Sequence record: QB031382.1
From: a phage
Reading direction: 5' to 3' (one strand)
DNA: 64,000 nucleotides
Position 1 is the stretch's first letter, and every line of letters starts with the position of its first letter. A program made the position numbers and the translations under genes. Below the pieces are notes generated by a model, which worked only from the letters and a program-made list of their open reading frames with translations, had not been told where the DNA came from and made no database searches. Of the stretch, positions 4,551 to 62,454 are shown piece after piece.

Positions 4551-4976
4551 ATGACCTATGAAATGCCAAAACTGATTCGTGACGATGCCCAAAACGCTCA
4601 CACCATTATTATGGGCAAACGCATGGATATTATTTGTCATAAAGATTTCTGGGAAGGAAGTTACTTCACAGAGTATTTTGGTAAACTGGACAATGGTCTG
4701 CTGATCCAGTTCTACACCGATGCGGAAAACAACATTCACTGGGAGTTCGAAACTGAAGATATCCATAAACTTTTCACCTTCCTCGGTATTAAGGTTGAGG
4801 CCAAGTTTGAAGAAGGTGAGTGCGACGATTGTGGATTCTACGAGGTAACAGATTTCTATCTTCCGAGTGGTGAGAACCTTTACTATGAAAGCCACTTCGG
4901 TAACTCCAATATGCCACAGTGCTGGACTGAGTTTTTTGAAATTGTGGAAGAGGAGTTGGCATATCGTGATTATTGA
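4551..4976 (+). CDS. hypothetical protein, translationally coupled to macrodomain gene
   Basis: Track ORF; its TGA stop overlaps the GTG start of the next gene. Confidence 0.5.
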   Translation: MTYEMPKLIRDDAQNAHTIIMGKRMDIICHKDFWEGSYFTEYFGKLDNGLLIQFYTDAENNIHWEFETEDIHKLFTFLGIKVEAKFEEGECDDCGFYEVTDFYLPSGENLYYESHFGNSNMPQCWTEFFEIVEEELAYRDY

Positions 4977-5424
4977 TACTGTAGAGGGAGATTTAATCTC
5001 CCTTTTTAAGAGTGGTGCTGGTCACCTGATCCACGGTTGTAACTGCTTCCACACAATGGGCAAGGGTGTAGCAAAACAGATTGCCCGTGAGTTCCCTCAA
5101 GCATTGGCAGCTGACAAAACGACTACCTACGGTTGCCTAAGTAAGCTAGGTGCGTTCTCTCGGTGGGAGCACTTATCTCCGAAAGGTATTGTCTACGGAA
5201 TCAATCTATACACTCAGTTCTACCCAGGGCCTAATGCTGAATATTTCTCAATTCTGAAAGGCTTTGAACGAGTCAATGAGATATTCAAGGGATCTACTTT
5301 ACCATTCTACATCCCTAAGATTGGGTGCGGCATAGGCGGCTTGAAATGGGGACACGTAGAGGACGTTATTAACCTTGCCACTTTTGATATAGATATTATC
5401 GTGGTGGAGTACAAAGAGTGTTGA
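4966..5424 (+). CDS. macrodomain protein, TARG1/DarG-like ADP-ribose hydrolase candidate
   Basis: Track ORF 4867..5424 trimmed to GTG 4966 after GAGGAG; motifs EGDLISLF..HLIHGCNCFHTMGKGVAKQIAREFP and PKIGCGIGGLKWGHVEDVI resemble TARG1/OARD1-type macrodomains. Confidence 0.65.
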   Translation: MIIDTVEGDLISLFKSGAGHLIHGCNCFHTMGKGVAKQIAREFPQALAADKTTTYGCLSKLGAFSRWEHLSPKGIVYGINLYTQFYPGPNAEYFSILKGFERVNEIFKGSTLPFYIPKIGCGIGGLKWGHVEDVINLATFDIDIIVVEYKEC

Positions 5425-8493: not shown

Positions 8494-8691
8494 ATGAACG
8501 CCTACGGAATCAAAGTACGTCGCAACACTCGCCAGGTGGTCACCAATCAAGTGATTTGCCGGGCGGATGTAACCATCAACAACGGGCAAGGCCTTTATAA
8601 ATTTCGTCGCGGTCATAGTTATACCCTGCAACAGCTTAATCGTTGCGCCCTGACAAAAGGCCAGATCAACCACTGGTTTAATAAAAAATAA
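8494..8691 (+). CDS. hypothetical protein
   Basis: Track ORF; RBS GAGGA upstream. Confidence 0.55.
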   Translation: MNAYGIKVRRNTRQVVTNQVICRADVTINNGQGLYKFRRGHSYTLQQLNRCALTKGQINHWFNKK

Positions 8692-8694
8692 GTA

Positions 8695-8723
8695 TTGACA
8701 TATAGCCTGACACAAAATACACT
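8695..8723 (+). promoter_or_regulatory. sigma70-like promoter
   Basis: TTGACA 8695-8700, 17-bp spacer, TACACT 8718-8723. Confidence 0.5.
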
Positions 8724-8755
8724 AAAAGCACAAAAGACACTAAGAGGATAAAATC

Positions 8756-9154
8756 ATGAAAACCACTACCTTTAATTTTGACAATGCGGACTTTTCTTTT
8801 TCTGATGTCAAGAACTGCCGCCGTGATCGTGGATTTTATAAGGCTTATAATCTGGTGGGCCTGGACGATGACAATAATTTGCACGAAGTAGCTGAGATCC
8901 GGTATTATGCCGCCGCCAGTGGGAACACTCACTACTGCGTTTTTTGGATACACGACAACAAGAACAATAAGTACGGCTATACTGGCGGCAAGGCGAGCGG
9001 TCACGGTTATGATAAAGCTAACGCAGCACTTGAGAGCGCATTAAATGCTATGGGGATCACTGCCGACGGCTGGATCTACGAAGAAGAGTTTTTGTCGGCA
9101 CTTGCTGACCGCCTGGGATATAAAAAGCACATTGTAACATGTGCCCACGAATAA
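8756..9154 (+). CDS. hypothetical protein
   Basis: Track ORF; RBS AAGAGGA upstream. Confidence 0.55.
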   Translation: MKTTTFNFDNADFSFSDVKNCRRDRGFYKAYNLVGLDDDNNLHEVAEIRYYAAASGNTHYCVFWIHDNKNNKYGYTGGKASGHGYDKANAALESALNAMGITADGWIYEEEFLSALADRLGYKKHIVTCAHE

Positions 9155-9165
9155 AAAAAAAATTA

Positions 9166-9193
9166 TTGACACGCTGCAAAATTCAAGTAAACT
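9166..9193 (+). promoter_or_regulatory. sigma70-like promoter
   Basis: TTGACA 9166-9171, 16-bp spacer, TAAACT 9188-9193, preceded by A-tract. Confidence 0.5.
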
Positions 9194-9241
9194 AGACACA
9201 AAAGGCGGGAATGTTTCCCGCCAACACAAAGGAAAAAGATC

Positions 9242-9646
9242 ATGAATAAGAACGTACGCCGCATCATGAACGAGTTGGCAAACGATGAAAAAATTATTGA
9301 CATGCATTTGATCAACATTTGCCGCCGTTGTGTAACATATAACAACCGCGCCGCAAAAGCGCGTGAGATGAACGCAAAAGGCACCTTAAAGCCATTCCAG
9401 GTGGTGGTAAAGGCCATTAAAAATGTAACTAATACGGCAAACCAGGTACAGGGGAACACCAACGAGAGTACCAATATTGATCCGGCTTACATCATGAAAC
9501 GGATCCGGACCTGTAAGAACAAAGAGCAAGTGTATAATGTTATAGACTGGTTGGATTCTATGGGCGACGTGGTGTACAATAGATTCTCGGCAGCTATTGA
9601 GATCCAGCTTGACAGGTTGGACGGTAAAGTACTGAAAACTTATTAA
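9242..9646 (+). CDS. hypothetical protein
   Basis: Track ORF; RBS AAGGAAA upstream. Confidence 0.5.
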   Translation: MNKNVRRIMNELANDEKIIDMHLINICRRCVTYNNRAAKAREMNAKGTLKPFQVVVKAIKNVTNTANQVQGNTNESTNIDPAYIMKRIRTCKNKEQVYNVIDWLDSMGDVVYNRFSAAIEIQLDRLDGKVLKTY

Positions 9647-33014: not shown

Positions 33015-33803
33015 TTACTCGGAAACAGGAGTCCAAATATGATTTGCACGATCCTCAATAAGATTGAGTGCAATCTGACGGCCCAACCCGGAACGAACGA
33101 CATCGTCTGGACTATCAAAGCTAATCATTCCAACCTCAGGATCTGGATGACGAGTAAAGAAATCCGTCACCCATGCAAGGCCAGATTTACCAGGGATGTC
33201 ACGTTGGCTATTATCACCCATAATTACAAGGGTGGCCTGATCAGAGATCCTTGTGATGATTGACAACATTTCTTCAGGATTGGTTTGCTGTGCTTCATCA
33301 ATAAGGACAAAGCATCGTTCATCAAAACTACGACCACGAATGCTTTCAACCTCACAAATCTCGATACGGCTGTTCTGACCGTCCCCAAGCATTGCTGCAA
33401 AAGCACCTTTGCCAACACGACGACAAATAGTGTCCATCATGCTTCGAAGATAGGGCCACAGTTTCTGCATTGCATTTCCGGGTTTAAATCCTGAAGTCTT
33501 TCCTGTCTGAACGTAAGGACGTGCAACAATGATCTTATCAATCTCGTTCTTGCGCAGAAGATCACCTGCATATGCAGATGCCATGAATGTCTTACCGGAT
33601 CCAAACACACCGTTTACAATGATAATCTTACGCGACCCTAGATAATCAAGATACTTTTGCTGCTTTTTATTCATTGGTCGGAGAGCTGGAGCGGTGTGCT
33701 CTCGTTCGTCAGCAAATTTTTCAGCAGCCTTACGCAGGCGATCAGATTTGCGAGCCTCTCTAGCTTCATCACGCATGCGTTTTGTTTCTTTAGCTCGACC
33801 CAT
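33015..33803 (-). CDS. phoH: PhoH-like ATPase
   Basis: Walker A GVFGSGKTFMA and overall PhoH-like layout. Confidence 0.8.
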   Translation of the reverse strand: MGRAKETKRMRDEAREARKSDRLRKAAEKFADEREHTAPALRPMNKKQQKYLDYLGSRKIIIVNGVFGSGKTFMASAYAGDLLRKNEIDKIIVARPYVQTGKTSGFKPGNAMQKLWPYLRSMMDTICRRVGKGAFAAMLGDGQNSRIEICEVESIRGRSFDERCFVLIDEAQQTNPEEMLSIITRISDQATLVIMGDNSQRDIPGKSGLAWVTDFFTRHPDPEVGMISFDSPDDVVRSGLGRQIALNLIEDRANHIWTPVSE

Positions 33804-33842
33804 GTTGGGACTCCTTTCAGATTGAGATGTGCCAAGTACTTT

Positions 33843-52959: not shown

Positions 52960-54243
52960 TTATTCCAGCACCTCCCAAGTGTCTGGATTAACATTTCGGA
53001 CGCAGATACCGACAGGGAATTGGTAGTTGTTGTCTTCTGTCCTTGCTTGATATTTGAAGGTGACAAACTTGCCGATCATTTCCTGCATCCTGTCATAGCT
53101 ACGCTCCTCGTGCGTACCTTTCATCTTCATTTTAACAACAATACCTTCCTTGTCAACACAGATAAGAACACCTTCATCATTCTTATCTTTCTCAACGTCA
53201 ATAACTTTCACCTCTGCGTCGTTGAACTTTTTCCATTTCAATGCTTCAGATGTTCGCTGACCATACTCATATTTACCACAGAAGTTACGCATGATAGTAC
53301 CTTCATACCCTTCGGACATGAATACACCAACAGACTCTTCGCAATGATCAACTGTGTACGCAATCTCTGCGTCAACAACCTTGATATGGTCAAGCATCAG
53401 AGTGGTAATGGTATCTTCTGCATCCATAAGATCCTTGCAGCGTCCAGACTCTGTTTCTGGATCCCACCACACCTTGTCACTAGGGATATCAAAAATGTGA
53501 TACTCTAGATCATAGCTGCAGTACCCTCCGTAACGCAAATCATCACGAACAGGCTCAACATCGACAGGAATATCTACCTTATTGAAGTTTTTGTATGTTG
53601 ATAAGCCTGCCTTAATTGCGGCATGACGGCGTTTTTTATCTGCCTCGTAGTCTTTATCGATCTCGGCCTGAATCTCTTCCTGTGTGCGCCACCGTTTAGC
53701 AAGAGACACTATTTTCTGCAGAGGCAGGCCATGAATATAGATCTCTCCGTCGAGCTGTTTAATCCCGGTGGTGAAGTGGAAAGAACGAAGTTGCTCCAGA
53801 AGCTTTCCTTGAATAGGGTAGGACTTATTACCACGGGAAATAAATTTAGGCTCACCATTTTGGAAAACAACAAGTAGACGAAGGCCATCTAACTTACGCA
53901 AGATCCAGCAAGGTAATTTAAGTGCCTTTCCACGCTTCAGGTAGTCATGCACCAGCATGGGTAAAAGGTCAACACCCTGCTCGCAATCTTCCATATTTTC
54001 AACATACCCCAGACGGACTTGTTTTTCCCACTTACTGATCGCTTCCAGCTCAGCCTGTTGCTCAGCTGTAGTTTCATTGGCACGACCAACGTTCTTAGGT
54101 GTGCAGATCGTCTCTTTGTATTGCAGTTTACCATCAAGCTTGCCAAACTCTACGATAACCTTATCACCATCCGTGAATACTTTCCACTGTTGGTAGCTGC
54201 CATCTTTGTTCAGTACGTACAGTGTTGTTTTGATCTGATGCAT
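52960..54243 (-). CDS. ATP-dependent DNA ligase
   Basis: Motif I KLDGLR, motif III DGEIYIHG, motif IV EGTIMRN, motif V LKWKK. Confidence 0.8.
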   Translation of the reverse strand: MHQIKTTLYVLNKDGSYQQWKVFTDGDKVIVEFGKLDGKLQYKETICTPKNVGRANETTAEQQAELEAISKWEKQVRLGYVENMEDCEQGVDLLPMLVHDYLKRGKALKLPCWILRKLDGLRLLVVFQNGEPKFISRGNKSYPIQGKLLEQLRSFHFTTGIKQLDGEIYIHGLPLQKIVSLAKRWRTQEEIQAEIDKDYEADKKRRHAAIKAGLSTYKNFNKVDIPVDVEPVRDDLRYGGYCSYDLEYHIFDIPSDKVWWDPETESGRCKDLMDAEDTITTLMLDHIKVVDAEIAYTVDHCEESVGVFMSEGYEGTIMRNFCGKYEYGQRTSEALKWKKFNDAEVKVIDVEKDKNDEGVLICVDKEGIVVKMKMKGTHEERSYDRMQEMIGKFVTFKYQARTEDNNYQFPVGICVRNVNPDTWEVLE

Positions 54244-54807: not shown

Positions 54808-54870
54808 AACTATCTACCTCACTTGCATACTTTCCACAACAAGTAAAGCCGGGATCGCCCGGCTATGTTG

Positions 54871-55584
54871 TTAAATATACTCTGTTACATCCTTGAAGCT
54901 TGAAGGCTTCATGATCTTGCCTTTACTGTCAAGGAATATGATAACTTTATTACCGTTGTAGAATTCCTCTTTAGCAACAAAACCTTCATAGCGACCATCA
55001 AAGCGTCGCTCAAGATCTTTAATCTCCAACTCGATGAGTTGTTCAGCAGGCATATCTGCACTGGCACCGTGTGAATACCGCAGATGGTTGACCCGTGCAA
55101 ACTTGCTGTCATTAGATTTTAGAACCTTCCGCATCATCCCGCACACATCACCGCGAAGCTGGAACAGTAAAGCCGTTGACAGCTCTACTAAGCGGTAAGC
55201 AGACGCTCTTTGCTTAGAGGTATTTTTCGCAGCGATCAGTGTATCATAAAATTCACCGATCTTAAACTTAAGACCTCGCGGGTTATCAAACAGGTTTGAC
55301 CACTTTTCATGGTTATCGTTAACAAGATAAGCGGCATAACTTGTGACAACGTGAAGATCGCAGGCCTCTTTTAGGAGATGATCCCCACCATCACCTTTCT
55401 CCAACTCTTCCAAAACTTCATTGAACTCTTCCTCAATGAAACTCAGCTGAAGTTCGAATGGTGTGTATGATTTTTTCACTTTAGCTGCTACACGGTTCCA
55501 ATTTTCCACCCAGTTGGCAGACCAAAGGTAGTTTTCAGGCTGAGACAGTTTTTCCAGGTTGTCGATCAGTTTAGTATTCAGCAT
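54871..55584 (-). CDS. hypothetical protein, possible MazG-like NTP pyrophosphohydrolase
   Basis: Glu-rich helix SFIEEEFNEVLEELEKGDGGDHLLKE; weak call. Confidence 0.3.
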   Translation of the reverse strand: MLNTKLIDNLEKLSQPENYLWSANWVENWNRVAAKVKKSYTPFELQLSFIEEEFNEVLEELEKGDGGDHLLKEACDLHVVTSYAAYLVNDNHEKWSNLFDNPRGLKFKIGEFYDTLIAAKNTSKQRASAYRLVELSTALLFQLRGDVCGMMRKVLKSNDSKFARVNHLRYSHGASADMPAEQLIELEIKDLERRFDGRYEGFVAKEEFYNGNKVIIFLDSKGKIMKPSSFKDVTEYI

Positions 55585-55598
55585 TAAAAGGCCTCCGC

Positions 55599-56360
55599 TT
55601 ACAGTTCCATAAAGTTTTCTACGATGTCAATAAATGTTTTATCAGAGAAAGCGTCAACCGCCCCGTTAAACCAAACTGGGATGCCGCGATCCTCATACTG
55701 GTAAATGTCACTACGTGAAATGCCATTCTCCCCTAAATGCTGTGAGTCGTATTTGTTAACGATTAGTAGTTTAGTCCCCTTATTACAGGCAGGAAACAGC
55801 TCCCAGTTAAAATTGATAACTGTATTGGAGCACCCTACAAGAATAACCATATCATTGCTAGTCAGAGAAGTCAACAAGTCATACATGTCTGTATACTTTG
55901 GGGCTACTTCTCCGAAGAATACTACATTAGGCTTAACCCAAATATACTTGCTTGTATCTACCTCAGAGTATCCAATGTCTTTAATGACGTCATTCCCTTC
56001 ATCATCCTCATAAACTATTTCTGGCAAATACCCGTGGACATGTAAAATATCTTCATGTTTTACACCAGCACGCTCCAGCAAATCATCTACATTGGTGGTC
56101 AGGTTGATCACACGACCAGACCAGCGGGAATACCACTCAGCTATCCGGAGATGTGCAAGGTTAGGATCAACACTGCCCAGAGCTACACGCCGTGCATTAT
56201 AAAAGTCATGCACCTTATAGTAGTTCTTGGCAAAGGTGTGGATGTTACACACCTCATCGATGCTGAAATTCTCCCACATTGCAGTGCCACCAGATCGGAA
56301 AGTTGGGATACCAGATTCAGCGCTCAAACCAGCACCAGAGATAATGATCAGTCGTCGCAT
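55599..56360 (-). CDS. Sir2-family NAD-dependent deacylase / ADP-ribosyltransferase
   Basis: GAGLSAESGIPTFR, TTNVDDL, HVHG, VVFFGE, VGCS sirtuin motifs; no zinc-finger cysteines seen. Confidence 0.7.
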   Translation of the reverse strand: MRRLIIISGAGLSAESGIPTFRSGGTAMWENFSIDEVCNIHTFAKNYYKVHDFYNARRVALGSVDPNLAHLRIAEWYSRWSGRVINLTTNVDDLLERAGVKHEDILHVHGYLPEIVYEDDEGNDVIKDIGYSEVDTSKYIWVKPNVVFFGEVAPKYTDMYDLLTSLTSNDMVILVGCSNTVINFNWELFPACNKGTKLLIVNKYDSQHLGENGISRSDIYQYEDRGIPVWFNGAVDAFSDKTFIDIVENFMEL

Positions 56361-56368
56361 AAGTGTCC

Positions 56369-56719
56369 TCAGTAGATGTTTTGTTTAATCTCTATTCCAA
56401 ACTTTTTAAACGAGTCAGCAGCAAGCATGAATTTACGAGCCGCTGATGGGTTAGAAGTATGCACGAAAATCTTCACGTTGTCAACTACAGGAGGCTTACC
56501 AAATACAAATTTTTCTTCCAGCATAGATAGGCAATCGTACCCTTCAAATACCTCTCCAAGGTCGTTGTCCATGTGCCACTCAGAAACGCGCCTATAGAGC
56601 TTTCCCTTATCGTTAATAAAATCCATAAACTCAGAGGAATTCTTTAGCCAAAGAGCATCTGGGAGCCCATAATTTGACGGATCTCTCAAGTCATCCAGCC
56701 ACACAATCAACTTCTTCAT
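56369..56719 (-). CDS. hypothetical protein, coupled to RNA ligase gene
   Basis: Track ORF; 4-nt overlap with RNA ligase gene. Confidence 0.5.
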   Translation of the reverse strand: MKKLIVWLDDLRDPSNYGLPDALWLKNSSEFMDFINDKGKLYRRVSEWHMDNDLGEVFEGYDCLSMLEEKFVFGKPPVVDNVKIFVHTSNPSAARKFMLAADSFKKFGIEIKQNIY

Positions 56720-57651
56720 TGCATATAGTCCTCGTTGTGGAAATAGCAGTCAAGTATCTCACGGCGTTCCTGCTCCAAGAGGCAATTCCACACATCTTCT
56801 GTGTAGTTTCTACGAATGAAGTTTACCATGCCGTAAAACTCTTCGTCAACACGTTTAAAGATATCATTATCCCAAATCTTCCAAGCTTTACCCCTCATTA
56901 CGGCCTTCCGTGCCAAATAGTATGGAGACTTGATCTTCAGCTGCAGATCATAAGGATAGTAAGGCTTACGAATCATATACCCTTCACCTCTTGTTTCTGC
57001 AGCTAATTCTTTTGCATAGCTGAACGGAATTTCACGCACAGTGTGAGGACGTTTTGCACCAAGGTATTTGGCAATCCCATCTAAAGCTGCTTCTGGTAGC
57101 ATTATTCCAGAATCATTATATCTGCAACCTATCAAATATGCGCCATGATCTTCCTGAACAATATGCGGATCTGAAGGGTGACAAATTTCAAACATGAATG
57201 TCATGTTTTCATGGCCCATAACCTTCTTGATAAGATCTAAATTACCACATTGCTCCTGGATTGTTTCCTTTGCAAGGTTACAATATGGAGAATCAAGAGA
57301 CCCGGTTGTTGAGAACAACAGTTCACCTTTGTGAGATGATACCACACCAAGGAATCCGTTCTTTTTCTCTACCGCCGTCACAAGTTTATTGTCAGGCAGG
57401 TTTGTGGAATTTTCTCCCAAGTTAAACACTTTTGTGAAGGGCCATGCCACAACATTTCCTTCATTACCAACAACAATTCCTCGGCACTCTGGTAAACGCG
57501 GAGACAAATGCCATAAATTGTTGTAGAATACTTTTCTGGCATATTTGTAGATCTTTAATCCAAGATCTGGGTAATACCGACTGGTTACAAGACCTTTATC
57601 CACTAAATCATCTGCATTAAAATACTTCATCATACATTCCTCGTTTGTCAT
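56716..57651 (-). CDS. RNA ligase-like nucleotidyltransferase
   Basis: EKKNGF (KxNG variant of lysine motif I), FMFEI (III), GEGYMIRK (IV), LKIKS (V). Confidence 0.55.
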   Translation of the reverse strand: MTNEECMMKYFNADDLVDKGLVTSRYYPDLGLKIYKYARKVFYNNLWHLSPRLPECRGIVVGNEGNVVAWPFTKVFNLGENSTNLPDNKLVTAVEKKNGFLGVVSSHKGELLFSTTGSLDSPYCNLAKETIQEQCGNLDLIKKVMGHENMTFMFEICHPSDPHIVQEDHGAYLIGCRYNDSGIMLPEAALDGIAKYLGAKRPHTVREIPFSYAKELAAETRGEGYMIRKPYYPYDLQLKIKSPYYLARKAVMRGKAWKIWDNDIFKRVDEEFYGMVNFIRRNYTEDVWNCLLEQERREILDCYFHNEDYMQ

Positions 57652-57751: not shown

Positions 57752-58162
57752 ATGTCTAAAATGCTATATATCGTGCGTGGTCTACCAGGTTCTGGCAAAT
57801 CAACACTGGCAAATGCACTATCTTTAGAGGGGCTGTACCCACATTTTGAGAACGACATGTTCTGGTACGACGACGATGGAAATTACAACTGGGATGCAAG
57901 TAAAGTAACACTTGCAGCAAAATGGTGCAAAGATAACGTAGAAGATATGATACGTATGGGATACGACCGTGTCGTGGTAAGTAATACGTTTACAAAAGAA
58001 AAACATGTGCAAGAATATGTTGACATGGCAATCAGTCATGGGTATAGTTATACTGTGATCGTGGTTGAAAACCGCCACGGTAATAAGAGCATTCATGATG
58101 TTCCAAATAGGGTTGTGGACCGTATGGAGCGTGAGCTTAAAAACTGCATTAAACTAAAATGA
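57752..58162 (+). CDS. P-loop kinase, polynucleotide kinase-like
   Basis: GLPGSGKST Walker A, VVVSNTF; size and layout like the T4 Pnk kinase domain; RBS GGAGG. Confidence 0.5.
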   Translation: MSKMLYIVRGLPGSGKSTLANALSLEGLYPHFENDMFWYDDDGNYNWDASKVTLAAKWCKDNVEDMIRMGYDRVVVSNTFTKEKHVQEYVDMAISHGYSYTVIVVENRHGNKSIHDVPNRVVDRMERELKNCIKLK

Positions 58163-58169
58163 GGGATGT

Positions 58170-58724
58170 ATGAAATATTTTGTAACAAGCGATACACACT
58201 TTCTCCACCAGCGAGTCATGGAGTTTGATTCATGTCAAAAACACAGATCTCAGTATGATCGCAATCTTGACAGTATGAATGCAGGAATCATCGCCGAGTG
58301 GAACTCTGTTGTGTCACCGGAAGACACTGTGTTTCACTTGGGCGATATTGCATGCACTAAGGATAAGAATATCAACAAATTTCTCCCAGATGTTCTAAAT
58401 ATGTTGAACGGACATATTATTCTTGTTCGTGGTAACCATGACACAAGGACGACTGTCAGAATTATGAAAGAGTTCGGTCATGAGGTTGTAGATTATTACG
58501 AGCTTCGCCACAACAAGAATTTGATCTGTATGAGCCATTACCAGTTTGCAAAGTGGAACAGAAAGCCTCACGGATCAGTCCAACTGTTCGGTCATGCTCA
58601 CGGAACCACACAGCAGTTGTTTGGCAGGCAGTTTGATGTCGGTTGGGATGTGTGGGGGAGACTCTTACCATTAGAAGAGGCATACCGTATTGCAATGAGT
58701 CTTGCTATTGACAGCGGGGAGTAA
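58170..58724 (+). CDS. calcineurin-like metallophosphoesterase
   Basis: TSDTH, GDIA, VRGNHD, GHAHG metal-binding motifs. Confidence 0.65.
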   Translation: MKYFVTSDTHFLHQRVMEFDSCQKHRSQYDRNLDSMNAGIIAEWNSVVSPEDTVFHLGDIACTKDKNINKFLPDVLNMLNGHIILVRGNHDTRTTVRIMKEFGHEVVDYYELRHNKNLICMSHYQFAKWNRKPHGSVQLFGHAHGTTQQLFGRQFDVGWDVWGRLLPLEEAYRIAMSLAIDSGE

Positions 58725-61641: not shown

Positions 61642-61716
61642 GCCCTGTTAGCTTAGTGGATAAAGCAGCGGCCTTCTAAGCCGTTGACACTGGTTCGAGT
61701 CCAGTACGGGGTGCCA
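61642..61716 (+). tRNA. tRNA-Arg(UCU): tRNA-Arg (anticodon UCU)
   Basis: Hand-folded cloverleaf: acceptor GCCCTGT/ACGGGGT, loop CTTCTAA, T-loop TTCGAGT, encoded CCA. Confidence 0.8.
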
Positions 61717-61720
61717 AATT

Positions 61721-61807
61721 GGGGAGTTATCCCGTAGAGGTAGCGGTGTAGACTGTAAATCTATTGTCATTGCGACTCGGGTGGTTCGACTCCACCACTC
61801 CCCACCA
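61721..61807 (+). tRNA. tRNA-Tyr(GUA): tRNA-Tyr (anticodon GUA), long variable arm
   Basis: Acceptor GGGGAGT/ACTCCCC, loop CTGTAAA, T-loop TTCGACT, encoded CCA. Confidence 0.75.
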
Positions 61808-61921
61808 AATTTATATTTTTAAATGCATAAATCATACAGATAATGACATTGATATTTATCGTCGTTTATACTAGTCACTAACTGCTCGAAAATCAGTGTC
61901 ATTATCAGTGTAATTTATAAA

Positions 61922-62012
61922 GGAGGGTAGGGAGCAATGGTGCTCAAGCGGTCTTGAAAACCGTCCCGTTGAGGATGACTCGATGATGGTTCGATTCCAT
62001 TACTCTCCGCCA
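61922..62012 (+). tRNA. tRNA-Ser(UGA): tRNA-Ser (anticodon UGA), long variable arm
   Basis: Acceptor GGAGGGT/ACTCTCC with one GU, loop CTTGAAA, T-loop TTCGATT, encoded CCA. Confidence 0.75.
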
Positions 62013-62110
62013 CATTGTTGACCTTGTAATTAAGCGAAAGCCGGAAGCAGAACCGGATTATCAAATGTTACAGTCGTCATCGCCGACTAGCCACATGGTC
62101 AACATATTGC

Positions 62111-62207
62111 GCTAGGTAAGCCCTTTGGCAAGGGCGAGGATTTTTAATCCTGAAAATAGACGCGGTAGTCGTTGAATACATAGGTGGTTCGATTCCATCA
62201 CCTAGCA
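62111..62207 (+). tRNA. atypical tRNA-like gene, identity unresolved
   Basis: Perfect acceptor GCTAGGT/ACCTAGC, D-arm and T-arm (TTCGATT), but the anticodon region is a 6-bp hairpin AGGATT/AATCCT with UUU loop and about 30 extra nt; 97 nt. Confidence 0.4.
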
Positions 62208-62214
62208 CCTTTTT

Positions 62215-62290
62215 GCTGATGTAGCACAATCGGTAGTGCAATTGATTTGTAATCAATAGGTTGCAGGTTCAAGTCCTGCCATCAGCACCA
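62215..62290 (+). tRNA. tRNA-Thr(UGU): tRNA-Thr (anticodon UGU)
   Basis: Acceptor GCTGATG/CATCAGC, stem ATTGA/TCAAT, loop TTTGTAA, T-loop TTCAAGT, encoded CCA. Confidence 0.8.
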
Positions 62291-62291
62291 T

Positions 62292-62366
62292 GGCCCTGTA
62301 GCTGGAAGGTTCAAGCAAGCGACTCATAATCGCCAGACGGTGGTTCAATTCCACCCAGGGCCACCA
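62292..62366 (+). tRNA. tRNA-Met(CAU): tRNA-Met or tRNA-Ile2 (anticodon CAU)
   Basis: Acceptor GGCCCTG/CAGGGCC, loop CTCATAA, T-loop TTCAATT, encoded CCA. Confidence 0.75.
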
Positions 62367-62377
62367 AATTATAAATA

Positions 62378-62454
62378 CTCCGCGTAGCTCAGCTTGGTAG
62401 AGCGCCTGATTTGGGATCAGGAGGTCGAGTGTTCGAATCACTCCGTGGAGACCA
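62378..62454 (+). tRNA. tRNA-Pro(UGG): tRNA-Pro (anticodon UGG)
   Basis: Acceptor CTCCGCG/CGTGGAG, D-arm GCTCAGCTTGGTAGAGC, loop TTTGGGA, T-loop TTCGAAT, encoded CCA. Confidence 0.75.

Follow-up and report, generated by a model that had tools for sequence, protein, structure and literature searches.

A distinct clade of sirtuins in phage genomes was described by Iyer, Burroughs, Anantharaman and Aravind (Viruses 2022, PMC9503650), whose section 3.7.3 sets out three types of gene neighbourhood for it. These passages propose that the clade acts like KptA, removing the 2'-phosphate left after a 2',3'-cyclic phosphate has been opened, and that the associated esterases either make the substrate or process the adenosine diphosphate (ADP)-ribose cyclic phosphate ADPr>P. 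As set out there, KptA/Tpt1 acts downstream of cyclic-phosphate opening in RNA repair; it uses nicotinamide adenine dinucleotide (NAD), releases nicotinamide and forms a ribose-1'' adduct that is then attacked by the 2''-OH, which parallels sirtuin chemistry. Here we analyse a Sir2 gene at positions 55599-56360 (minus strand) of a 64,000-nucleotide stretch of phage DNA (sequence record QB031382.1), the whole of which is called the window below. Its neighbourhood is of the kind numbered type 2 in the same paper, with Escherichia phage V5 and Proteus phage Mydo as prototypes and MazG among the named components. The locus shares with the described clade a T4-like RNA ligase, a cREC domain (cyclic-phosphate processing receiver-like domain, defined by the same authors in a 2021 jumbo-phage paper, PMC7824862), a kinase, MazG, a calcineurin-like phosphoesterase and the lack of an adjacent macro domain.

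Judged by these passages, the locus is another member of the clade with nothing essential different, and the gene, its context and its putative role are already known from routine annotation and from the 2022 computational prediction, which we tentatively follow. The same passages make no mention of missing zinc ligands, of a Gln-to-Thr/Ala change or of a C38/Y54/R57 pocket. What appears to be new is detail of modest weight, namely a residue signature of the phage enzymes (TQN to TTN/TAN, and C38) and a widespread loss of zinc ligands in cellular class III sirtuins. Members of the clade are known from about 1000 sequenced phages, among them T5, a model phage, and rV5-like phages that serve in biocontrol. 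Both T5 and the rV5-like phages are tractable and the assays are simple, and the functional question is easy to address.

A conserved sirtuin gene in rV5-like phages

The open reading frame at exactly 55599-56360 (minus strand) starts with ATG and encodes 253 amino acids. In its product, residues 9-181 align to 178 of the 180 positions of the Pfam SIR2 profile PF02146 (E=1.1e-26; 94.3 bits, cutoff 24), and the protein matches PHROG 2162, 'Sir2 (NAD-dependent deacetylase)', end to end (E=8.4e-109). The Sir2-family gene that a preliminary description had recognised in this phage is thereby borne out. The 4.8 kb around the gene are 98.4% identical to Escherichia phage FV3 (Vequintavirus), whose orthologue is already annotated as Sir2, and the region shows 90-99% identity to 122 phage records in which the gene is annotated 'Sir2-like' or 'NAD-dependent deacetylase'; the window belongs to an rV5-like myovirus (Vequintavirus). 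By tblastn, 1006 phage records contain a homologue, which is close to full length in 867, and T5.102 of phage T5 was identified as a homologue with 58% identity. The ratio of nonsynonymous to synonymous substitution rates (dN/dS) is about 0.08 against two orthologues, and the gene is under purifying selection. Because of the profile matches, the spread over 1006 records and this low ratio, we regard the gene as real, conserved and already annotated. The clade is large in phage and metagenome collections, and no homologue above about 43% identity was found in 185,579 species-representative genomes; the clade is essentially phage-restricted.

Two database names seem to need correction. A protein of Klebsiella phage vB_Kpn_3, called 'tail assembly protein' in its source record, is a clear member of the sirtuin clade (E=1.6e-81, PF02146), and its name is likely a misannotation. 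Conversely, RefSeq calls T5.105 (NC_005859.1, 57588-58094) 'Sir2 (NAD-dependent deacetylase)', whereas its product carries the HAD 'Swiss-army-knife' RNA-repair phosphatase domain PF18143 (E=4e-20). The sirtuin of T5 is in fact T5.102, and the T5.105 label looks like an annotation error that probably spread from a PHROG label.

The phage Sir2 is a divergent class III sirtuin without zinc ligands

The N-terminal NAD-binding motif of the phage Sir2 reads GAGLSAESGIPTFR (G9...R22), with the motif positions G9-A10-G11-x-S13...S16-G17-I-P-T-F21-R22. It is followed by TTNVDD at 88-93 (T88-T89-N90-V91-D92), by HVHG with H109-G110, in which H109 is the catalytic His, by FFGE at 148-151, by GCS at 176-178 and by N202. 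In an alignment of 113 sequences, G9, A10, G11, F21, R22, N90, D92, H109, G110 and G176 are invariant, and S13, S16, G17, S178 and N202 are invariant or nearly so. H109, N90 and D92 align with CobB H147, N130 and D132 (H110, N93 and D95 of the short isoform). The canonical NAD-binding motifs noted in the preliminary description were confirmed in this way, as GAGxS, F21/R22, GxS and N202, and the catalytic His and Asn, on which its assignment hinged, are invariant together with D92.

Among proteins of solved structure, E. coli CobB and human SIRT5 match the phage sequence best (E of about 6e-21), and class U and class I sirtuins match at E of 1e-13 to 1e-11. An AlphaFold2 model built from the 113-sequence alignment (predicted local distance difference test score, pLDDT, 91.8; predicted template-modelling score, pTM, 0.89) superposes on E. 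coli CobB with template-modelling (TM) scores of 0.75-0.85; it supersedes a single-sequence AlphaFold2 model, which was unusable (pLDDT 39). The structural comparison of the phage Sir2 with other sirtuins gave the following values.

Sir2-Af1: 22.4
PfSir2A: 20.2
Hst2/SIRT1/SIRT2/SIRT4: about 18
SirTM: 15.4
Defence SIR2 (PsSIR2, HerA-Sir2, ThsA, Avs5): 9-14

The closest relatives in both sequence and structure are class III members. The best score against the NCBIfam CobB/deacylase models is 120 bits, where the cutoff is 243, and the other models give 54-102 bits against cutoffs of 221-395; none of the PADLOC defence SIR2 models is matched. Given the ranking of the structure matches, the lack of a PADLOC match and the sub-cutoff CobB scores, the phage Sir2 is, by sequence and fold, a divergent offshoot of the class III (CobB/SIRT5-like) deacylases and not a defence-type NADase. 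With the class III enzymes (E. coli CobB, 1s5p and 6rx*; Archaeoglobus Sir2-Af1, 1ici; human SIRT5) it shares only 24-28% identity. Unlike them it has no Zn(Cys)4 site, is phage-restricted and lies in a nucleic-acid repair operon, and it falls below every NCBIfam CobB cutoff.

Two other groups of zinc-less sirtuins are structurally less similar. The defence SIR2 NADases (ThsA, DSR, SIR2-HerA/Nezha, Avs5, SPARSA), which consume NAD, resemble it in having a Sir2-like Rossmann core without the zinc-binding module. The phage Sir2, however, matches none of their profiles and is neither fused nor adjacent to a sensor or partner of their kind (SLOG, HerA, pAgo, STAND or the DSR C-terminal domain); the parallel with NAD-depleting defence effectors drawn in the preliminary description is not supported. 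The SirTM enzymes (class M), which are macro-domain-linked and ADP-ribosylating, also lack the zinc-binding cysteines and act as transferases, not as deacylases. SirTM enzymes are not known to have the catalytic His, whereas the phage Sir2 keeps it and has no macro-domain operon or fusion.

The phage Sir2 has only three cysteines, C38, C177 and C192, none of which lies between H109 and E151, the zinc-ligand segment, and no CxxC pair occurs in this segment among about 105 phage homologues. The segment from HG to FFGE is nevertheless of normal length (37 residues versus about 41 in E. coli CobB), and in the alignment-based model three strands (110-118, 124-128 and 142-146) occupy the position of the zinc ribbon. 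The zinc ligands are thus missing, and the three-stranded module itself is predicted to be retained; the preliminary description, which had the enzyme lacking the zinc ribbon, was right about the ligand cysteines but not about the beta module.

Loss of the ligands also occurs outside phages. Fewer than four Cys were found in the zinc segment of 43 of about 75 parsable cellular class III relatives (80 fetched, from species-representative genomes), and we rejected zinc-ligand loss as a phage-specific hallmark on this ground. Cellular class III (CobB-like) sirtuins, especially those of Bacteroidota/Flavobacteriia, often have 0-2 Cys in this segment and keep TQN, and the closest TQN relatives in a 50%-identity representative library include both zinc-bearing and zinc-less forms. 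Zinc-independent class III sirtuins seem, from these sequences, to be common in cells.

The phage clade carries a distinct active-site signature

For the active site we aligned 63 members from mid-size phages, 42 from jumbo phages, eight cellular relatives and E. coli CobB. In the TQN(I/V)D motif, the Gln (CobB Q129, SIRT5 Q140) is replaced by Thr in 63/63 mid-size-phage members, including T89 of the window Sir2 ('TTN'), and by Ala, Ser or Thr in 42/42 jumbo-phage members. It is kept in 9/9 aligned cellular sequences and in all 75 further cellular relatives with a readable motif. SIRT5 Q140 has been described as universally conserved and NAD-binding, and the Q140A substitution is predicted to abolish activity (PMC9499238). 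Among the 150 best clusters of the representative library, about 45 consist of 'TTN' proteins; in 40 of these the module has fewer than four Cys, and in five it has at least four. Because these five keep their cysteines, the Gln change and the loss of zinc ligands are separate events.

The acyl pocket differs as well. The SIRT5 pocket triad A86/Y102/R105 (CobB A76/Y92/R95) corresponds to C38/Y54/R57 in the window Sir2. C38 is invariant across all phage members, and 8/9 cellular sequences have Ala at this position; Y54 and R57 are invariant in the mid-size-phage clade, and R57 is often Leu or Met in jumbo-phage members. Other clade-specific invariants are Y47, G130-Y131, K143, Y156 and W186. 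The 'VYP' that follows GTS is changed to V-I-N in the mid-size-phage clade, and the Y-P is absent from the jumbo members too. This pattern points to a reshaped active site and not to decay, and it offers targets for mutagenesis: the TQN-to-TTN change, C38 and the missing zinc ligands in a module that is kept.

The loss of zinc ligands and of a conserved Gln could also mark a decaying or non-catalytic remnant that serves only as an NAD binder or structural partner. This is very improbable in view of the dN/dS of 0.08, the full length kept in 867/1006 phage records, a catalytic His/Asn/Asp and NAD-binding motifs that do not vary among about 105 diverse phage members, and the confident, compact predicted structure.

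The main rival of the end-healing role set out below is a second explanation, that the protein is an ordinary CobB-like lysine deacylase (deacetylase/desuccinylase) acting on host or phage proteins during infection. Its closest relatives in sequence and fold, CobB, Af1 and SIRT5, are bona fide deacylases. The class III pair Y54/R57 (SIRT5 Y102/R105) is invariant in the mid-size-phage clade, where the residue in place of A86 is a small one. The FGE loop is kept together with the catalytic His/Asn/Asp, and the pI is acidic as in cellular CobB-type proteins. Such an enzyme might act on cREC or on the catalytic lysines of the neighbouring RNA and DNA ligases, and its by-product O-acyl-ADP-ribose might be cleared by phage esterases or pyrophosphatases. 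PMC9503650 cites work (its reference 97) on the deacetylation of CheY, a receiver protein, by CobB. A deacylase would mean that phages edit the host acyl-lysine proteome. Against it stands the loss of the NAD-binding Gln, the residue whose replacement is predicted to inactivate SIRT5 (PMC9499238), from all phage members but from none of the cellular relatives; the 'VYP' after GTS is non-canonical in the mid-size and jumbo clades, and the scores lie far under the CobB equivalog cutoffs. Taken with the gene contexts given below, this explanation strikes us as rather unlikely, while still one to be reckoned with.

The sirtuin gene lies in a predicted nucleic-acid repair operon

In the window, the Sir2 gene is surrounded by the following features.

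56716..57651, minus strand: Rnl1-like RNA ligase (311 amino acids; PF09511 RNA_lig_T4_1, E=8e-15; PHROG 562, E=6e-65; KxxG at K96)
56369..56719, minus strand: cREC, cyclic-phosphate processing receiver-like domain (116 amino acids; PF20274 cREC_REC, E=4.5e-14)
55599..56360, minus strand: Sir2/sirtuin (253 amino acids; phage clade derived from class III; zinc ligands absent, 'TTN')
54871..55584, minus strand: MazG-like nucleotide pyrophosphohydrolase candidate (237 amino acids; PHROG 671, E=5.5e-22, partial coverage; no Pfam match)
54847..54864, minus strand: GC-rich hairpin from a terminator-like scan (stem of 7 bp with 6 GC pairs), within the 63-bp gap that follows the MazG-like gene
57752..58162, plus strand: P-loop nucleotide/polynucleotide kinase-like protein (136 amino acids; PF13671 AAA_33, E=1e-10; PHROG 2071, E=2.5e-57)
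58170..58724, plus strand: calcineurin-like metallophosphoesterase (184 amino acids; PF12850 and PF00149, E of about 3e-7; PHROG 547, E=1e-51)
52960..54243, minus strand: ATP-dependent DNA ligase (427 amino acids; PF01068 and PF14743; PHROG 114, E=4e-82)

The Rnl1, cREC, Sir2 and MazG-like genes follow one another in this order, all on the minus strand, with spacings of -4, 8 and 14 bp. We predict that Sir2 is co-transcribed in this operon with an Rnl1-type ligase, a candidate cREC cyclic-phosphate esterase and a MazG-like pyrophosphatase. The residues D9, D10, R12, D13, D51, D53, H87, N90 and P91 of cREC are invariant across its phage homologues. The hairpin at 54847..54864 might mark the end of the transcription unit, which is suggestive only: its T tail is weak, and the terminator-like count in the scan is not above the shuffled expectation. 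A promoter scan of the operon gave 22 hits versus 17.1 +/- 3.9 in shuffled sequence, which is not above expectation, and no promoter is claimed. After the MazG-like gene and the hairpin gap come two small open reading frames and then the DNA ligase, in the same gene string. The kinase-like gene, which is divergent from the RNA ligase, also matches PHROG 505 'polynucleotide kinase' (E=4.6e-10) and has the P-loop GLPGSGKS, and the metallophosphoesterase shows weak similarity to the ligase-associated PdeM family. The placement of Sir2 next to RNA-repair genes, already pointed out in the preliminary description, is confirmed by Pfam and PHROG matches for the adjoining ligase, cREC, kinase and phosphoesterase. 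NAMPT, NMNAT, Nudix, 2H and HAD_SAK genes were looked for in the window, and none was found.

Repair genes recur around the sirtuin in related phages

We surveyed 80 related IMG/VR loci by jackhmmer at the level of open reading frames; the loci are phylogenetically redundant and the counts are descriptive only. A predicted end-healing gene lies within 8 kb of the sirtuin in 57/80 loci, in three configurations, which are listed here with the remaining type.

rV5-like and Mydo-like loci (12 loci and 4 partial): phosphoesterase, Rnl1, cREC, kinase, DNA ligase and MazG beside the sirtuin
T5-like loci (28, and 1 non-T5-like locus with HAD_SAK): HAD 'Swiss-army-knife' RNA-repair phosphatase (PF18143) and two DUF7415 proteins
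Jumbo-phage loci (12 loci): NMNAT-like, NAMPT, 2H-like, Sir2, Nudix-cREC and PhoH
Loci without a recognisable repair neighbour (16/80): none of the tested families

The association of the sirtuin with repair genes is recurrent, not obligatory. A DNA ligase is present in the sirtuin neighbourhood of all Mydo-like and rV5-like loci examined, and in related phages it is linked to Sir2, cREC, phosphoesterase and MazG. In Phapecoctavirus-like phages (IMGVR_UViG_3300030441_000047, about 65.5-81.9 kb; also NC_052656.1), NAMPT, cREC, metallophosphoesterase, DNA ligase and MazG-like genes are clustered. The cluster excludes Sir2, Rnl1 and the kinase, which are located some 30 kb from it, and on the IMG/VR contig Sir2 lies near 104.6 kb. 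The conserved core may be a ligase-associated end-processing module with a weakly PdeM-like phosphoesterase.

A NAMPT gene was found within 8 kb of the sirtuin in 24/80 loci (Mydo-like and jumbo phages), with an NMNAT-like gene alongside in the jumbo phages; NAMPT in this position may serve local recycling of the nicotinamide released by the sirtuin. In T5-like phages, Sir2 and HAD_SAK are always followed by the tandem genes T5.106 and T5.107 (8651-9481 of the T5 locus piece), with two DUF7415 repeats each. In T5-like and jumbo phages, the distance between PhoH-like genes and the sirtuin is 2-4 kb; in the window, a PhoH-like ATPase gene is located at 33018-33842 (minus strand), 22 kb from Sir2.

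Two further comparisons were uninformative. Whether the sirtuin and KptA exclude each other near cREC genes could not serve as a guide, since a jackhmmer search with E. coli KptA found no homologue in the window or in any of about 100 related loci fetched. Longer homologues were considered for domain fusions that hint at function, and the only ones were tandem Sir2 and a WG-repeat fusion, both in TQN-type proteins.

A proposed KptA/Tpt1-like role in nucleic-acid end healing

The family and fold, the active-site signature, the tight transcription unit, the three repair contexts and the independent proposal in the cited passages of PMC9503650 support one explanation in common: the phage sirtuin would be catalytically competent and provide an NAD-dependent step in healing RNA or other nucleic-acid ends cut by host nucleases, as an analogue of KptA/Tpt1. 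We put this forward tentatively, as the leading explanation but one that falls somewhat short of probable. The fold, the catalytic residues, the purifying selection, the clade signature, the operon and its recurring context are established here, and the substrate and chemistry inferred are as follows. A class III deacylase ancestor would have been re-tooled in the phage clade by loss of the zinc ligands, Gln-to-Thr replacement and a pocket Ala-to-Cys change, with the anion-binding Y54/R57 kept. The smaller Thr or Ala at the Gln position and the retained Tyr/Arg pair could make room for a phosphate and bind it. In a first step, the 2'-phosphate from an opened 2',3'-cyclic phosphate would attack C1'' of NAD, its oxygen taking the place of the acyl oxygen as the nucleophile, and nicotinamide would leave. 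The ribose 2''-OH, activated by H109, would then attack the phosphorus to give RNA with a 2'-OH and ADP-ribose 1'',2''-cyclic phosphate, which neighbouring esterases or pyrophosphatases might clear. The likeness to KptA/Tpt1 is a putative one of activity: KptA/Tpt1 has an ADP-ribosyltransferase fold (PTS_2-RNA), the phage Sir2 a Rossmann fold, and no homology between the two was detected.

In its widest form, the proposal is that the phage 'TTN' sirtuins are the first sirtuins with nucleic acid as their physiological substrate. They would process RNA or DNA ends with NAD, by 2'-phosphate removal or by ADP-ribosylation of a terminal phosphate, as a convergent replacement of KptA/Tpt1 derived from a CobB-like deacylase, and would undo the cleavage of tRNA or mRNA by host defence nucleases in rV5 and T5. 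The reshaped pocket (Gln to Thr/Ala, Ala to Cys) would then use its Tyr/Arg pair as a phosphate clamp. We consider this conceivable, though on the doubtful side. Should the prediction of a role in RNA repair be true, sirtuin chemistry would gain a new substrate class, and a phage counter-measure to RNA-cleaving defences would be revealed.

Several observations weigh against a role in end healing. The phage Sir2 keeps the catalytic His, the FGE loop and, in Y54/R57, the class III determinants for acyl-lysine, as expected of a protein deacylase, and the sirtuin family is acidic (isoelectric point 4.6-5.9), which is unusual for an RNA-binding enzyme. T4-type Rnl1 pathways are not known to need a 2'-phosphate step. 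The T5-like phages apparently have no Rnl1 homologue (14 Salmonella-phage ligase records versus 289 for Sir2), and, conversely, the ligase is found in many phages of Pseudomonas, Vibrio and Streptomyces that are not among the Sir2 matches. In the survey, 16 loci lack a recognisable repair neighbour. The Phapecoctavirus sirtuin has none that is recognisable, its cREC, phosphoesterase, DNA ligase, MazG and Rnl1 homologue being about 30 kb off. The clustering with NAMPT/NMNAT in jumbo and Mydo-like phages may partly reflect general NAD metabolism. No experimental study of any clade member, T5.102 and the rV5 Sir2 included, was found in the full-text literature searched. That the gene occurs without any RNA ligase in T5-like phages and, in Phapecoctavirus, at a distance from repair genes also speaks for a deacylase; what a deacylase leaves unexplained is the repeated link with three unrelated families of end-healing enzymes.

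The macro domain and NAD metabolism

The window also encodes a macro domain, as the preliminary description had noted: the open reading frame at 4867-5424 (plus strand) matches PF01661 over about 4966-5424 (26.1 bits against a cutoff of 22), 50 kb from Sir2. Of the NCBIfam families it comes closest to the DarG antitoxin, which is a DNA ADP-ribosyl glycohydrolase (E=3e-11; 43 bits, with the cutoff at 250), and its FV3 orthologue is annotated only as 'phosphatase'. Because it lies 50 kb away and is DarG-like, its role is more likely independent of Sir2, and a SirTM-like pairing of sirtuin and macro domain was rejected on the same grounds. The protein could be a counter-measure to DarT-type DNA ADP-ribosylation.

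A macro domain in the genome would be in keeping with a third explanation, in which the phage Sir2 is an NAD-consuming ADP-ribosyltransferase, or a hydrolase of NAD or an NAD derivative, acting on proteins, on other nucleic-acid termini (for example 5'-phosphates) or on small molecules as a tool of host take-over or anti-defence. The altered surroundings of the N-ribose (Gln to Thr/Ala) might favour transfer or hydrolysis over deacylation, and the NAD salvage genes NAMPT and NMNAT occur within 8 kb in 24/80 related loci. We nevertheless think this explanation quite improbable. The protein matches no defence SIR2 NADase model and has lower structural similarity to defence SIR2, its catalytic His is kept, the macro domain is distant and DarG-like, the window is without NAD salvage genes, and an NAD-wasting enzyme would harm the phage unless tightly directed. 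The suggestion in the preliminary description that NAD or ADP-ribose metabolism is a battleground for this phage stands only in part: the macro domain and a Sir2 with intact catalytic residues are there, but the two lie 50 kb apart and no NAD salvage gene is found in the window. The context is more in keeping with NAD serving as a reagent for the repair of nucleic acids than with a contest over NAD pools.

A tRNA-like gene cluster near the repair genes

About 3 kb downstream of the repair genes, the window carries a cluster of seven tRNA-like genes (61642-62454, plus strand). These are Arg-TCT, Tyr-GTA, Ser-TGA, Thr-TGT, Met-CAT and Pro-TGG, together with a 99-nucleotide element at 62111-62209 to which ARAGORN assigns a four-base anticodon (atcc); the FV3 annotation gives only five tRNAs in this cluster.

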